IMG/VR virus record: IMGVR_UViG_2703718824_000005
Reading direction: 5' to 3' (one strand)
DNA: 32,827 bases
Origin: a virus
Lineage: Duplodnaviria; Heunggongvirae; Uroviricota; Caudoviricetes
Part shown: one piece after another, positions 2,371 to 8,538 of the stretch
How positions within the stretch are numbered: the stretch's first letter is position 1
How the letters are laid out: each line of letters opens with the position of its first letter
Made by a program: the position numbers and the translations under genes
The notes under the pieces: model-generated
The model's input: the letters and a program-made list of their open reading frames with translations, nothing else
What the model was told of the DNA's origin: nothing
The model's database searches: none

Positions 2371-2468
2371 GCCAAGACTACACACAGCAATGAAACTATT
2401 GCCTGTCTTTTCACCACTTCAGGCTCGGTGGTATGCTGGAGTTCTCACACAGCCAGCAAGGAAACCTA

Positions 2469-2810
2469 ATGAACCAGTTTTATGTTCACGTTCGTCTGTT
2501 TGAAGCAACAGCCGAACAGACCAAAAAATTTGAAGAATTAATGCTTAACTTTCTGTACCAGAAAACAATCAAAGAGTCTGACGATAGCTGCTGCAGACTG
2601 ATTCCAGAGGGATATATCCTCAAAAGCACAATGAACTGCCAACAAATCCTTGATCAAACTTTTTCCATTGCTAACAGTGCTGGTGTTGACGCAAATATAT
2701 TTGTCTGCAAATTTGAACAAAGCGCATGCTTACTTCCGTCTGCTTCCTTAGTTGGCAACGATTTTGTTCATCACGATCTTACGCCTAAGCCCATCAAGCT
2801 CGATTCTTAA
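2469..2810 (+). CDS. Hypothetical protein (113 aa), AT-rich, opposite strand to the P_L operon
   Basis: ORF 2433..2810 trimmed to ATG 2469 (AAGGAAA RBS); fills a 560-bp stretch with no minus-strand ORF; its 3' end overlaps the convergent gene 2748..3056 by 63 bp. No recognisable family. Confidence 0.35.
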   Translation: MNQFYVHVRLFEATAEQTKKFEELMLNFLYQKTIKESDDSCCRLIPEGYILKSTMNCQQILDQTFSIANSAGVDANIFVCKFEQSACLLPSASLVGNDFVHHDLTPKPIKLDS

Positions 2811-3056
2811 TGCCTTAACCATTGTGTCGTGATAAACACGGCTCACCCTCTCTCCATTGCATGGCAGGGGGGTGATCGTGTTAGCCATGAAATTCATGAA
2901 CTTGGTTCGATCAGGATCTTGCGCCCCGCAAGTCTTTAATGCCTGTTTTGCTAACAAAATACGGGCCTCAGTGCCTGCATTTGGCTCTATCTGCTGCAAA
3001 CGTTTAGCGTCTTCCAGCAACAATGCGATCACATGCTTCAAATCCTGCTCATTCAT
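2748..3056 (-). CDS. Hypothetical protein, first gene of the leftward (P_L) operon, in the position lambda uses for N
   Basis: 102-aa ORF with a GGAGAG RBS 5 nt upstream of the ATG at 3056; located 100-150 bp downstream of the candidate P_L. Not arginine-rich at the N-terminus, so not an obvious N homologue. Confidence 0.55.
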   Translation of the reverse strand: MNEQDLKHVIALLLEDAKRLQQIEPNAGTEARILLAKQALKTCGAQDPDRTKFMNFMANTITPLPCNGERVSRVYHDTMVKALRIELDGLRRKIVMNKIVAN

Positions 3057-3149
3057 CTATTCTCTCCACTGAAATCATCCGCTAACGAATCATCCCGGTC
3101 TTCGTACGTACCGGGCGGGCTACTTCGTGGGTGTCCTGCCTGTTCGTTG

Positions 3150-3215
3150 TCTTAACACCTTTAAGTTGTAATTTAGTTGTGGTTTTGAATGTTGTCAACA
3201 ACTTTATGTGGTTTG
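3150..3215 (-). promoter_or_regulatory. O_L-like operator cluster with candidate leftward promoter P_L
   Basis: Minus strand reads TTGACA (3198-3193), 17-nt spacer, TAAATT (3175-3170). Motifs AACACCTTTAAGTTGT (3153-3168) and ACAACTTTATGT (about 3198-3209) recur at the cI-cro intergenic region. Confidence 0.4.
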
Positions 3216-3261
3216 AACGAGTAGCCAAGGAGTGCAAGGATTATCAAAAAAAGGAGGTTGT

Positions 3262-4152
3262 ATGGAAGACGCGCTTTACGCTTTTAATTACACACAGAAC
3301 CGGGACAAGTTATTTGCTAACTTGATTAGCATCATTGATGGAATCATTGCAGATGGAGTTGTCCGTGAAGAGGAGGTTCTTTACTTAGATACATGGTTAC
3401 TTGAAGCAAAGCAGATTATCAATAATGGAGTTATAAAAAGTCTATCTGCTCGGGTGTCGGATATTCTTGCGGATGGAATAATCACATCAGAAGAACGTGA
3501 TGACCTTAAAAATAGCCTTCTCCAAATACAGAGGGAAATTCTTGATATCCCTGAAATTGATTTTTACTCCAAGGATGTAGATGTCCATTTACTTAATGGA
3601 CTATGTAAAGGATTAATTGCTGATCGGAACTTAACTCAAGAAGAAATAAGATATCTTAATTGGTGGCTTGAGCAAAATGGAGCTTTGAAGAACAACTACC
3701 CAGGAAAAAAACTTTATGCACTTGTAAAGGAAATTCTTAAAGATGGTGTTATTACTGAAGATGAGAGTTTAACTCTACATAAGGCATTAGTAGACTTCAC
3801 AGGATGTGACTTGGAAAGTGGGGTGGTGGATGGTTTGGCGACCAGGCTGCCTATTGATGTAGGGGCTTCGATAGAGTTAGAGGGTAAAACCTATTGTCTT
3901 ACAGGCACTTTTGTTGCAGGAAAGAGAGCCGTAGTTGAAAATTTGATTAAAAATGCTGGTGGGAACATCAGTAGTGGAATTACTCAAAAGTTGGATTTTT
4001 TAGTAATTGGGACGCTTTCCTCCCGTGATTGGAAATTCTCTAGTCACGGAAGGAAGATCGAAAAGGCTATATCTTATAGGGATGATAATGGTGCAAAACT
4101 TAAAATTATTTCTGAAGAAATGCTTTTCGATGCATTACCAAGTTCGCGATGA
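3262..4152 (+). CDS. Moron protein with four TerB-like repeats and a C-terminal BRCT domain
   Basis: ORF 3232..4152 trimmed to ATG 3262 (AAGGAGG RBS, 5-nt spacer); 296 aa. Four roughly 45-aa repeats with the motif ADG-x-(V/I)-(T/R)-x-EE-x3-L; the C-terminus (LEGKTYCLTGTF...KLDFLVIG...) matches the NAD-ligase-type BRCT pattern. AT-rich relative to flanking phage genes; 3' end overlaps cI by 18 bp. Confidence 0.8.
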   Translation: MEDALYAFNYTQNRDKLFANLISIIDGIIADGVVREEEVLYLDTWLLEAKQIINNGVIKSLSARVSDILADGIITSEERDDLKNSLLQIQREILDIPEIDFYSKDVDVHLLNGLCKGLIADRNLTQEEIRYLNWWLEQNGALKNNYPGKKLYALVKEILKDGVITEDESLTLHKALVDFTGCDLESGVVDGLATRLPIDVGASIELEGKTYCLTGTFVAGKRAVVENLIKNAGGNISSGITQKLDFLVIGTLSSRDWKFSSHGRKIEKAISYRDDNGAKLKIISEEMLFDALPSSR

Positions 4153-4821
4153 CCAGAATACCCTACCTATAACATGAATTCTGGCTCGTCTATCTTCAAA
4201 GGTGAGTATTTCATCTGGGTACTCATCTTTGTTGAAGCTTCTAAGAATCAAGCCACCGTCAGGTAAGTTGATAAGTATTTTAACCCTTAGCAATACACCA
4301 TCTCGTACGGCATAAAGATCGCCATCACGAATAGGAACGGTTTGAGAAATATCAACGGCAACAAGATCTCCATTATTGAGAACCGGTAATAAACTGTTCC
4401 CCCATATTTGTACGATCTTGGCATTAGATGCACATACGCCAGATTTTCTCAAATCTGCTCTTCTTAACGGAAACCAGTCAATAGCTGATTCAACTATTTC
4501 AGCCAGACATCCGTTACCTGCCGATAACTCGACATCTAAAACAGGAATGTTTACGAAAATATCGGGGTCTAATGCGGTGCTTTCTGCTTCTTTTACAACA
4601 AGATCAGGTATGGATGCGTTGTCTTCAATACCAAGTTGTAACCACTTTTGTGATACACCTAAAACTTTTGCAATTTCTTTAATTTTGCGCGGTTGTAGAG
4701 TTTCGCCATTCTCTATTTTGGCTACAGATTGTTGTGAAAGTCCAATTTTTTCAGCTAGTTGAGCTTGGCTCATGCCAGCTTTCTCTCTACCTATCTTTAA
4801 TCGTTCTGCCAGTGTTTTCAC
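4135..4821 (-). CDS. cI: CI-type prophage repressor (XRE HTH + S24 LexA-like peptidase domain)
   Basis: 228 aa; N-terminal HTH (SQAQLAEKIGLSQQSVAKIENG) and C-terminal autocleavage-type domain; divergent from the cro-like gene across an operator-rich spacer; GTG start with GAGAGGG RBS. Confidence 0.9.
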   Translation of the reverse strand: MKTLAERLKIGREKAGMSQAQLAEKIGLSQQSVAKIENGETLQPRKIKEIAKVLGVSQKWLQLGIEDNASIPDLVVKEAESTALDPDIFVNIPVLDVELSAGNGCLAEIVESAIDWFPLRRADLRKSGVCASNAKIVQIWGNSLLPVLNNGDLVAVDISQTVPIRDGDLYAVRDGVLLRVKILINLPDGGLILRSFNKDEYPDEILTFEDRRARIHVIGRVFWSSRTW

Positions 4822-4844
4822 AACATATCCCTCTCTTTTTTGAT

Positions 4845-4940
4845 GAGGTTACAACTTTATGTTTTAGCTTTCCAACACCTAAAAGTTGTGGTGAAAGTTG
4901 TTAATGTTGTATTCTTGCAGCTCGTAACAACTTAACTACC
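4845..4940. promoter_or_regulatory. O_R-like operator cluster with divergent P_RM/P_R region between cI and cro
   Basis: Repeated half-sites ACAACTT / AAGTTGT at about 4850, 4884, 4895 and 4926, including AACACCTAAAAGTTGT (4874-4889), which is near-identical to the 3153-3168 motif. Exact -35/-10 elements not resolved. Confidence 0.4.
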
Positions 4941-4956
4941 AAAAAAGGAGAAAGCT

Positions 4957-5205
4957 ATGACACCTGAGCAATTAGCCTTATCGGAGGCAATCGCTCTGGC
5001 TGGTGGTCAATCAGAATTGGCTCGGAAGCTCACAGCCAGCAGCGGTCATTTAGTAAAGCAACAACATGTCTGGAACTGGTTGAACAGAGAAAAGCGTCCC
5101 CCTGCAAAGCTCTCGATATTCATTGAAAAGACCACTGGCATATCAAAAGAAAAATTACGTCCAGATATTTTTCAAAAGATTAAAGATTCATCAGATGAAA
5201 AGTAA
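4957..5205 (+). CDS. cro: Cro-like / YdaS-family HTH regulator
   Basis: 82 aa; AGGAG RBS 7 nt upstream; HTH segment (GGQSELARKLTASSGHLVKQ) and a C-terminal EKLRPDIF motif typical of YdaS-type Cro proteins; divergent from cI. Confidence 0.8.
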   Translation: MTPEQLALSEAIALAGGQSELARKLTASSGHLVKQQHVWNWLNREKRPPAKLSIFIEKTTGISKEKLRPDIFQKIKDSSDEK

Positions 5206-5227: not shown

Positions 5228-5785
5228 GTGGGTAAGCATCACTGGAAAATAGAAAAACAGCCTGAGTGGTACGTGAAAGCTGTCAGAAAAACTATCGCGG
5301 CGTTGCCGGGGGGTTACGCTGAAGCCGCTGACTGGCTGGATGTAACAGAGAACGCTTTATTCAACCGCCTTCGTGCAGATGGCGATCAGATTTTCCCGCT
5401 GGGATGGGCAATGGTTTTACAGCGTGCTGGTGGCACTCACTTCATTGCTGATGCTGTGGCGCAGTCTGCAAATGGCGTCTTTGTGTCTCTTCCTGACGTC
5501 GAGGATGTGGACAACGCCGATATTAACCAGCGTCTGCTGGAAGTCATTGAACAGATCGGCAGTTATTCAAAACAGATTCGTTCAGCAATCGAAGACGGCG
5601 TAGTGGAACCGCATGAGAAGACAGCAATTAACGACGAGCTGTATCTCTCAATTTCGAAGCTGCAGGAGCATGCAGCACTTGTCTACAAAATTTTTTGCAT
5701 TTCAGAAAGTAATGACGCCCGCGAGTGTGCAGCTCCGGGCGTCGTGGCGTCGATTGCTTCTGGTTGTGGAGAAACTAACGCATGA
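5228..5785 (+). CDS. Phage regulatory protein, CII / YdaT-like
   Basis: Position directly after cro; GTG start at 5228 preceded by AAGGAG (alternative in-frame ATG at 5195 overlapping the cro stop). Family assignment is from position and general sequence character only. Confidence 0.55.
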
Positions 5786-7562: not shown

Positions 7563-8215
7563 TGAGTAATAAATATTGCCAGGAGCTGGTGGAACTGCGG
7601 AACAAACCAGCCCATGAACTGAAGGAAGTGGGTGATCAGTGGCGCACGCCGGACAACATTTTCTGGGGAATTAACACCCTGTTTGGCCCGTTTGTTCTGG
7701 ATCTGTTCACTGACGGTGATAACGCCAAATGTGCCGCGTATTACACGGCGGAAGACAACGCGCTGGCGCATGACTGGTCAGAACGCCTTGCGGAGCTTAA
7801 AGGTGCTGCCTTTGGTAATCCTCCATACAGCCGCGCCAGTCAGCATGAGGGGCAATACATCACCGGCATGCGTTACATCATGAAACATGCCAGTGCCATG
7901 CGTGATAAGGGCGGGCGCTATGTTTTCCTGATCAAAGCTGCCACCAGCGAAGTGTGGTGGCCGGAAGATGCAGATCATATTGCTTTTATTCGCGGGCGTA
8001 TTGGTTTTGAACTGCCTGTCTGGTTTATCCCGAAAGACGAGAAGCAGATACCGACAGGAGCTTTTTTCTCTGGTGCTATTGCTGTTTTTGACAAGACCTG
8101 GAAGGGACCGGCAATCAGCTACATCGGGCGCGATGAACTTGAGGCATGTGGTGAGGCCTTTCTGGCGCAGGTTCGCCAGCAGGCGGAAAAACTGGTCAGG
8201 GAGATGGTGGCATGA
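7562..8215 (+). CDS. Phage N6-adenine DNA methyltransferase (Dam-like)
   Basis: ATG at 7562 overlaps the upstream stop (TAATG); catalytic NPPY motif (FGNPPYSR); typical nin-region orphan methyltransferase. Confidence 0.85.
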   Translation: MSNKYCQELVELRNKPAHELKEVGDQWRTPDNIFWGINTLFGPFVLDLFTDGDNAKCAAYYTAEDNALAHDWSERLAELKGAAFGNPPYSRASQHEGQYITGMRYIMKHASAMRDKGGRYVFLIKAATSEVWWPEDADHIAFIRGRIGFELPVWFIPKDEKQIPTGAFFSGAIAVFDKTWKGPAISYIGRDELEACGEAFLAQVRQQAEKLVREMVA

Positions 8216-8538
8216 CGACATTAACTCAATGCCAGCAGCAGGTGCTGGATATGCTGATTTCTTACCAGAAAGAACGAGGCTTCCCGCCAACCAATCAGGA
8301 GGTGGCAACCATGCTGGGATACCGTTCAGTGAATGCAGCGGTGGAGCATCTTCGCGCACTGGAGAAAAAAGGCGTCATCACGATAAAGCGTGGCGTGGCC
8401 CGGGGGATAACGCTTCATACCGCGGTGAAGGACGACGACAGCGAGGCTGTCTGGATTATCCGCTCACTGCTTGCCGGTGAGGAAAACGCCAGGCTGCGTG
8501 CAACCCACTGGTTACATGAGAGAGGCCTGAAAGTATGA
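8212..8538 (+). CDS. LexA N-terminal DNA-binding-domain-like protein, no peptidase domain
   Basis: 108 aa; LTQCQQQVLDMLISYQKERGFPPTNQEVATMLGYRSVNAAVEHLRALEKKGVI matches the LexA winged-HTH pattern; ATGA overlap with the upstream gene. Confidence 0.6.
   Translation: MTTLTQCQQQVLDMLISYQKERGFPPTNQEVATMLGYRSVNAAVEHLRALEKKGVITIKRGVARGITLHTAVKDDDSEAVWIIRSLLAGEENARLRATHWLHERGLKV

Follow-up and report, generated by a model that had tools for sequence, protein, structure and literature searches.

BRCT domains are central to DNA-damage signaling in eukaryotes; among bacteria their main known occurrence is as an appendage to LigA. In phage lambda the slot between O_L and cI is occupied by rexAB, and lambda cI bound at OR2 (-50 to -34) activates pRM. 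A full-length homolog of the protein considered here is encoded by orf2 of Vibrio phage K139, where the gene order cI-orf2-glo-int is given as a lysogenic operon with its promoter on the basis of the GenBank annotation. The family is already catalogued, as PHROG 3989 (unknown function), as K139 orf2 and under a RefSeq name, and the gene described below is a candidate, not a demonstrated new system. Additionally, PADLOC lists a candidate defense system, PDC-S48, in which a DEDDh exonuclease is joined through a helical linker to a BRCT domain. BRCT genes are listed among the alternative lysis-lysogeny modules of Roseobacter prophages in a 2026 preprint (PMC13345283). The phosphate pocket of BRCT domains consists of S/T-G after strand β1 and a Lys at the start of helix α2 (PMC10386641), and BRCT domains of the LigA/RFC1 class bind DNA and not phosphopeptides (PMC10386641). 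A full-text search of the literature found no functional study of the PHROG 3989/K139 orf2 family, the Roseobacter preprint being the one related mention, in line with the first-pass annotation, which had not recognized the architecture as that of a characterized protein. One apparent "BRCT" match in that search was dropped, as it concerned unrelated integron "BRiC" cassettes.

In the window, by which we mean the whole stretch of 32,827 nucleotides that was analyzed, the gene is intact at 3262..4152 (+) and encodes 296 amino acids from an ATG at 3262; the full open reading frame spans 3232..4152 (+). A GTG start at 3232 was discarded because the conserved -10 element (3236-3241) falls downstream of it and because the ribosome-binding site fits the ATG. 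This site is a strong Shine-Dalgarno sequence, AGGAGG, read at 3252..3257 (+), 4 nt 5' of the ATG and conserved in relatives. The start at 3262 matches that of RefSeq WP_000389078.1, a "BRCT domain-containing protein". The ribosome-binding site, the RefSeq start and the operator repeats described below bear out both the coordinates and the placement between O_L-like operators and cI that had been assigned to this reading frame. The protein matches PHROG 3989 over its full length (E 1.5e-128, residues 2-295 against profile positions 2-295 of 296), and K139 orf2, which has the same architecture and adjoins the repressor in the lysogeny module, is 33% identical over 95% of the protein. A whole-protein AlphaFold2 model built from 87 diverse homologs reached a pLDDT of 92.3 and a pTM of 0.89. 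We conclude that the product is a soluble two-domain protein with no recognizable catalytic domain. Charge is split between the two parts, with an N-domain of pI 4.46 and charge -15 (family median -17) and a basic BRCT domain of pI 9.2.

The BRCT domain occupies residues 206-290 (3877..4131, +) and is matched by Pfam PF00533 with 29 bits against a cut-off of 21.3 (E 1.3e-6). The BRCT alpha/beta fold is present in this C-terminal domain, and the top sequence match in the PDB is the BRCT region of RFC1 p140. Residues T214, G215, R222 and K265 are kept in 95-99% of 87 family sequences and align to the TG...R...SK residues of RFC1; T214-G215 and K265, together with R222, fit the S/T-G ... K pattern of the phosphate pocket. 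The NCBIfam LigA models match a BRCT stretch of about 50 residues only, with 20-28 bits against cut-offs of 369-1051, and Pfam and NCBIfam models found none of the adenylation, OB, Zn-finger or HhH domains of LigA in the window protein. Judged from these sequence features, the C-terminal part consists of one BRCT domain and belongs to the LigA/RFC1 class, a DNA-binding class, with its phosphate-binding residues kept, which upholds the earlier proposal of an NAD-ligase-type BRCT domain. LigA and RFC1 p140 provide the closest matches in sequence and fold and share the T-G, R and K residues. In contrast to both, the window protein is without the ligase or clamp-loader catalytic part and carries, before helix α2, an insertion of 8 residues (SSRDWKFS) whose Trp is invariant. 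The labels "NAD-dependent DNA ligase" and "DNA polymerase III epsilon" were discarded because the match behind them is confined to the BRCT part. Some databases mislabel homologs as "NAD-dependent DNA ligase".

The N-terminal part had been described by the first-pass annotation as four repeats resembling TerB/DjlA, and here the repetition is real while kinship with TerB holds at the level of the motif only. The four repeat motifs are IADGVVREEEVLYL (R1), LADGIITSEERDDL (R2), IADRNLTQEEIRYL (R3) and LKDGVITEDESLTL (R4). Profile-profile alignment with hhalign matched residues 10-98 to residues 99-186 with a probability of 99.7% and an E value of 1.8e-26, an internal repetition far beyond chance. 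At the level of single hairpins, R1 matched R3 (E 2.5e-19) and R2 matched R4 (E 2.3e-13), with cross pairs near 1e-5. Therefore, the N-domain consists of two times two hairpins and arose by tandem duplication of a double hairpin of about 88 amino acids. The AlphaFold model places nine helices in the N-terminal 186 residues. Unit 1 (residues 10-98; 3289..3555, +), delimited by hhalign against unit 2, comprises hairpins R1 and R2 with ADG-x-[VI]-x3-E loops and helices at residues 10-28, 36-50, 56-69 and 76-93. Unit 2 (residues 99-186; 3556..3819, +) comprises hairpins R3 and R4, and is the sole helical unit in a short class of relatives of about 205 amino acids.

What the N-domain has in common with the TerB/DjlA N-terminal domain (PF05099) is the helix-loop-helix motif ADG-x-[ILV]-x3-E-x3-L. 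A Pfam search of the window protein gave no match to PF05099 at E <= 1, and sub-threshold TerB matches occurred in 13 of 34 homologous N-domains, the best with an E value of 1.6e-4. An hhalign comparison of the family profile with DjlA of E. coli, which truly belongs to PF05099, paired 25 columns around ADG-x-[ILV]-x3-E-R-x2-L with a probability of 1.4%; the test is weak, its template being a single sequence. An equally weak match to the motif is given by the unrelated YmfL of the same window, and a few family members match EF-hand models. Structure searches gave no clear support for TerB kinship of the N-domain. Since the Pfam search gave no match and the alignment to DjlA is restricted to the motif, we rejected TerB membership as a claim about the domain, and the protein is therefore not filed under TerB.

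The close relatives form 354 clusters at 90% identity; at 50% identity, 2857 representative clusters match at E <= 1e-3, with 137 below 1e-30. For the search of related loci, a closer alignment of 17 sequences was used and not the diverse one of 87. Relatives fall into two size classes, one of about 295 amino acids (two helical units and BRCT) and one of about 205 (one unit and BRCT), and many of the short class are stand-alone chromosomal genes among housekeeping neighbors. The module also occurs in fusions. In one type it follows an N-terminal DEDDh exonuclease, and such proteins match PDC-S48 over most of its profile; in another it is joined to a LigA-type HhH2 and a second BRCT; in a third it lies at the C-terminus of a 2042-amino-acid SF1 helicase with an MTES_1575 nuclease. 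Residues 119-251 of the window protein match profile positions 239-377 of 411 in PDC-S48 (E 2.4e-7). Unlike PDC-S48, the window protein is without an exonuclease (no RNase_T match), and the match covers the non-catalytic part only. In four loci and in the P0131 cluster, an Ion_trans/Ion_trans_2 channel gene follows the homolog, the two being -4 to 45 nt apart.

In phage genomes, the homologs are found in lysogeny modules. In P2-like enterobacterial prophages the order is an HTH_3 repressor, a 207-amino-acid membrane-anchored protein, the BRCT gene and the integrase, with gaps of 0-98 nt. The BRCT homolog lies 30 nt after the repressor in the Pseudomonas D3-like phage phi1, follows an S24 repressor in a metagenomic element (P0121), and comes after int and a BamE-like gene in phage Lodos. 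A lambdoid of the P22-Cro type (P0133) carries it in the O_L-cI slot along with two further small genes. One further homolog ends a satellite-like island, where it adjoins an EcoO109I-type restriction enzyme and JetC/JetD. Placement of BRCT homologs in the lysogeny modules of unrelated temperate phages has been repeated and independent. Repressors or integrases are the recurrent neighbors of the homologs in P2-like, K139, D3-like and other lambdoid phages.

In the window, the BRCT gene is placed between the O_L operators and a gene at 4135..4821 (-) whose product carries the Pfam domains HTH_3 and Peptidase_S24 and is therefore a cI/LexA-type repressor. The two genes converge, and their 3' ends overlap by 18 bp according to the reading-frame coordinates (4135..4152), as had been reported earlier. 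A 3' overlap of 9-15 bp is kept in five related loci assigned to Pseudomonas lundensis, Citrobacter, Serratia, Tatumella and Rosenbergiella. A convergent cI is found in 80 of 80 viral contigs of IMG/VR with a BRCT homolog of at least 69% identity, and the two proteins diverge in parallel: the identities of the BRCT protein (69-100%) and cI (50-100%) co-vary with r = 0.94, a value inflated by near-duplicate contigs. The GC content is 38% for the BRCT gene, 40% for cI and 39% for the cassette 3081-5205, against 51.7% for the window and 53% to the right of the cassette. Window positions 3081-5000 are common to other E. coli prophages as one block with differing left flanks, homology to e14 of K-12 ends near window position 3150 at the left edge of the cassette, and SfV has no gene in the O_L-cI slot.

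Together these observations lead to the conclusion that O_L, the BRCT gene, cI, O_R and cro form one mobile AT-rich immunity cassette whose parts diverge together. Because the BRCT gene is co-inherited with cI and equally AT-rich, it is part of one immunity type and not a separate insert. The earlier description of the gene as an inserted AT-rich moron is thereby weakened. In one E. coli prophage an internal deletion has removed all of the BRCT gene but ~25 nt at its start and ~140 nt at its end; the operators and ribosome-binding site remain, and cI is intact. As this deletion derivative shows, cI can be kept without the BRCT gene.

Repeats that resemble operators, with the pattern ACAAC-N5-GTTGT/GTGGT, occur at 3154-3169 and 3197-3212, and O_R has copies at 4850-4889 between cI and cro. 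The repeat AACACCTTTAAGTTGT (3154..3169) belongs to direct-repeat family D1, whose other copies are at 3197-3212 and 4874-4889, and is conserved in loci of other genera. It covers the -10 and start region of a strong leftward pL-like promoter, TTGACA-17-TAAATT (3170..3198, -), which has 10 of 12 consensus matches in a scan and is conserved in alignment A5. The second operator, AACAACTTTATGTGGT (3197..3212), directly abuts the -35 element of the predicted BRCT-gene promoter (3213..3241, +). This promoter comprises a -35 element TTGAAC (3213-3218), a 17-nt spacer ending in TGC (extended -10) and a -10 element AAGGAT (3236-3241), and TTGAAC-17-AAGGAT with its TG extension was the top-ranked plus-strand candidate of the region in a consensus scan. 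Across 54 distinct upstream sequences the footprint reads as the operator AACAACTTTATGTGG, TTGA(T/A)(T/C), a variable 17-nt spacer ending in TG(C/T), AAGGAT, about 4 variable nt, AAAAAAGGAGG and ATG. In this set the two hexamers and the length of the spacer are conserved, its sequence being variable, and the operator at 3197-3212 is near-invariant, with G/A at one position in two sequences and a divergent operator in one locus (L161).

No operator lies inside the core BRCT-gene promoter, and O_L-bound cI should therefore not occlude it. The arrangement resembles that at the predicted pRM (4846..4889, -; found by scan and conserved across loci), in which TTGGAA (4875..4870) and TAACCT (4851..4846) are separated by 18 nt and the operator at 4889..4875 abuts the -35 element. 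The operator there ends near -36 relative to the predicted start; the O_L operator occupies the same register at the BRCT-gene promoter, and the two layouts agree with respect to the -10 element. By analogy with lambda pRM, cI may stimulate transcription from the BRCT-gene promoter. The pR promoter was not located by a simple promoter scan. The conserved promoter suggests that the BRCT gene is expressed in the lysogen on its own account. The earlier proposal of lysogen-compatible expression is plausible, given a conserved promoter free of operators and the place of the K139 homolog in an annotated lysogenic cI-orf2-glo-int operon. In contrast to K139, where orf2 is co-directional with cI in the operon, the window gene converges on cI and has its own predicted promoter. 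We found no convincing intrinsic terminator for either convergent gene, the sole nearby candidate (4184-4207, +) being weak and inside cI, which makes it likely that the BRCT-gene and cI transcripts overlap in antisense.

The reading that we prefer, with a probability of roughly 40%, is that the protein is a lysogen-expressed binder of 5'-phosphate DNA ends or nicks with a role in exclusion or defense, its acidic domain being regulatory or partner-binding. An extended -10 promoter that abuts an O_L operator in a pRM-like register would allow the protein to be made in the repressed prophage, possibly under stimulation by cI. The BRCT domain would then bind the 5'-phosphate of a DNA end, a nick or a recessed junction, and the acidic N-domain would mask the BRCT domain, signal or engage a partner. 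The benefit to the lysogen would be exclusion of, or defense against, incoming or replicating foreign DNA; in relatives, a fused exonuclease or helicase-nuclease or a paired ion channel would be the effector. We consider the protein a good candidate for a sensor of DNA ends, or a factor in exclusion, made by the lysogen; the exclusion or defense role is what we infer. Against this role, the window protein is without an effector domain and no channel gene is adjacent, PDC-S48 is itself only a candidate, and stand-alone chromosomal homologs lie among housekeeping genes. Furthermore, homologs directly 3' of ligA in four loci point to general DNA metabolism; in a fifth locus ligA is three genes downstream. 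A nick or end binder could also be toxic to the uninfected lysogen unless regulated.

The proposal can be sharpened into an effector-less, lysogen-specific sensor of DNA ends and nicks, switched on by the prophage repressor, that would cap 5'-phosphate ends or nicks in phage DNA as it enters or replicates, or pass them to a host nuclease or channel. In this specific form we regard it as speculative and somewhat unlikely. If it is true, the protein is the free-standing version of a module that elsewhere is fused to exonucleases or helicase-nucleases or paired with channels. More generally, lambdoid, P2-like and D3-like phages carry the BRCT protein within their immunity regions, and their lysogens probably produce it. 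Should such a stand-alone protein act in exclusion or in the control of induction, recognition of DNA 5'-phosphate ends would be a new sensing principle in prophage immunity, and this would also explain why the module recurs in candidate defense nucleases. The candidate is readily testable by deletion, cloning and point mutation.

An alternative is that the protein regulates the lysis-lysogeny decision: it would sense DNA damage (gaps, 5' junctions) and tune induction, for example via RecA loading or cI cleavage, and convergent transcription could modulate the level of repressor. The tight linkage to cI described above favors a regulator, including the convergent cI of all 80 contigs, the correlated identities and the 3' overlap in five genera. 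Repressors adjoin the gene in five or more phage lineages, the convergent genes have no terminator-like site between them, and the Roseobacter modules (PMC13345283) also hold BRCT genes. However, the prophage with the internally deleted BRCT gene keeps an intact cI, and the partner repressors include non-S24 types, such as a 128-amino-acid HTH_3 protein in P2-like prophages. Many homologs are without a nearby repressor, and the correlation of identities owes part of its height to near-identical contigs. A regulator of induction thus appears unlikely to us.

The ligA neighborhoods and the HhH2 fusions raise another alternative, in which the protein is an accessory to DNA repair or ligation that acts at nicks as a helper or competitor of LigA, for instance when DNA is integrated or excised or when cos ends are sealed, and so serves phage or host DNA metabolism and not defense. 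The phage copies, however, are found in the lysogeny module and not among replication or recombination genes, the protein has no adenylation or OB domain, and the gene is dispensable in the deletion derivative. We hold a ligation accessory to be quite improbable.

Comparison with rexAB had been drawn from the position of the gene, and the position is indeed the same, with expression in the lysogen probable; unlike rexAB, the window gene lies on the strand opposite to cI and is not co-transcribed with it, and it is a single gene with no membrane component. Pfam and PADLOC searches of the window protein found no similarity to RexA or RexB. A further possibility is a Rex-like abortive-infection pair in which the protein is the sensor and the effector (an ion channel or other killer) is encoded elsewhere in host or prophage. 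This is highly unlikely, for although the gene occupies the rexAB slot and channel genes follow some homologs, those pairs sit in ordinary chromosomal neighborhoods, no channel gene lies beside the window gene or its counterparts in the 80 viral contigs that were examined for cI and integrase, and neither Rex protein is similar in sequence.

The prophage that carries this cassette has a near-identical counterpart in RefSeq, in E. coli FHI_NMBU_10, which is e14/SfV-like, is integrated at icd and encodes intE, xisE, ymfI, ymfL, a contractile tail and an HK97-type head. An IS3 insertion present in the prophage of that strain is absent from the window, which begins inside intE/xisE and stops short of icd. 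About 1% of complete E. coli genomes (47/5426) carry the BRCT gene, as do many Enterobacterales prophages.

BRCT-protein homologues in marine gammaproteobacteria and one metagenomic cluster have as their same-strand downstream neighbour a gene for an Ion_trans/Ion_trans_2 channel of about 232-251 aa. The distance from homologue to channel gene is -4 to 45 nt at the five loci that carry the pair (L040:1326-2683, L053:4998-6409, L071:4998-6329, L073:4998-6326 and L177:2120-3756). This arrangement is reminiscent of RexA/RexB, and the two genes possibly form a sensor-plus-channel operon.

Homologues were also identified in other phage and island settings. The lysogenic operon of P2-like enterobacterial prophages (locus L007:3934-6905, with the same order in L009 and L014) encodes an HTH_3 repressor of 128 aa, followed by a protein of 200-207 aa with a membrane anchor at its C-terminus, the BRCT protein and the integrase. 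No Pfam family was found for the membrane-anchored protein. A satellite-like island with a D5_N primase and a small terminase (L174:3501-7900) carries a 40%-identical BRCT homologue at its end, after which come genes for an EcoO109I-type restriction enzyme and Wadjet JetD/JetC. Furthermore, the end of a Pseudomonas lundensis contig (JAWQUI010000002.1, locus L004) bears the same enterobacterial-type lambdoid immunity cassette as the window, in which the operators are identical and the BRCT protein shows 77% identity; its presence on a contig assigned to Pseudomonas could reflect either horizontal transfer or assembly contamination.

In one E. coli prophage, whose cI is related and intact (L084:2868-3105), the BRCT gene has an internal deletion: the O_L operators and the ribosome-binding site remain, as do ~25 nt at the start of the gene and ~140 nt at its end. 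In the giant protein P0236 (2042 aa), which also contains an SF1 helicase, an MTES_1575 nuclease and DUF3320, the C-terminal residues 1852-2042 are a one-unit-plus-BRCT module.

Full-length homologues are named 'NAD-dependent DNA ligase' in several database entries (P0012, P0042, P0059 and P0103-P0107) and likewise in the records of phages Kappa kp3 and phi1. We reject this label, since LigA has only the BRCT domain in common with these proteins.

Within the window, the CII-like regulator YmfL (5228-5785) shares a hairpin motif (18 protein letters, not shown) with the BRCT-protein repeats, at an hhalign E-value of 0.012 over 25 columns. The repeats also match NCBIfam YmfL and Pfam Phage_CP76, each weakly. 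In the early rightward operon, positions 8212-8538 encode a 108-aa protein that RefSeq labels a LexA-family regulator; it appears to consist of a DNA-binding domain like that of LexA and to lack the S24 peptidase part. Finally, ymfI (2433-2810, plus strand) and a ymfJ-like gene (2748-3056, minus strand) converge, sharing 63 bp, and each matches a PHROG family of unknown function.
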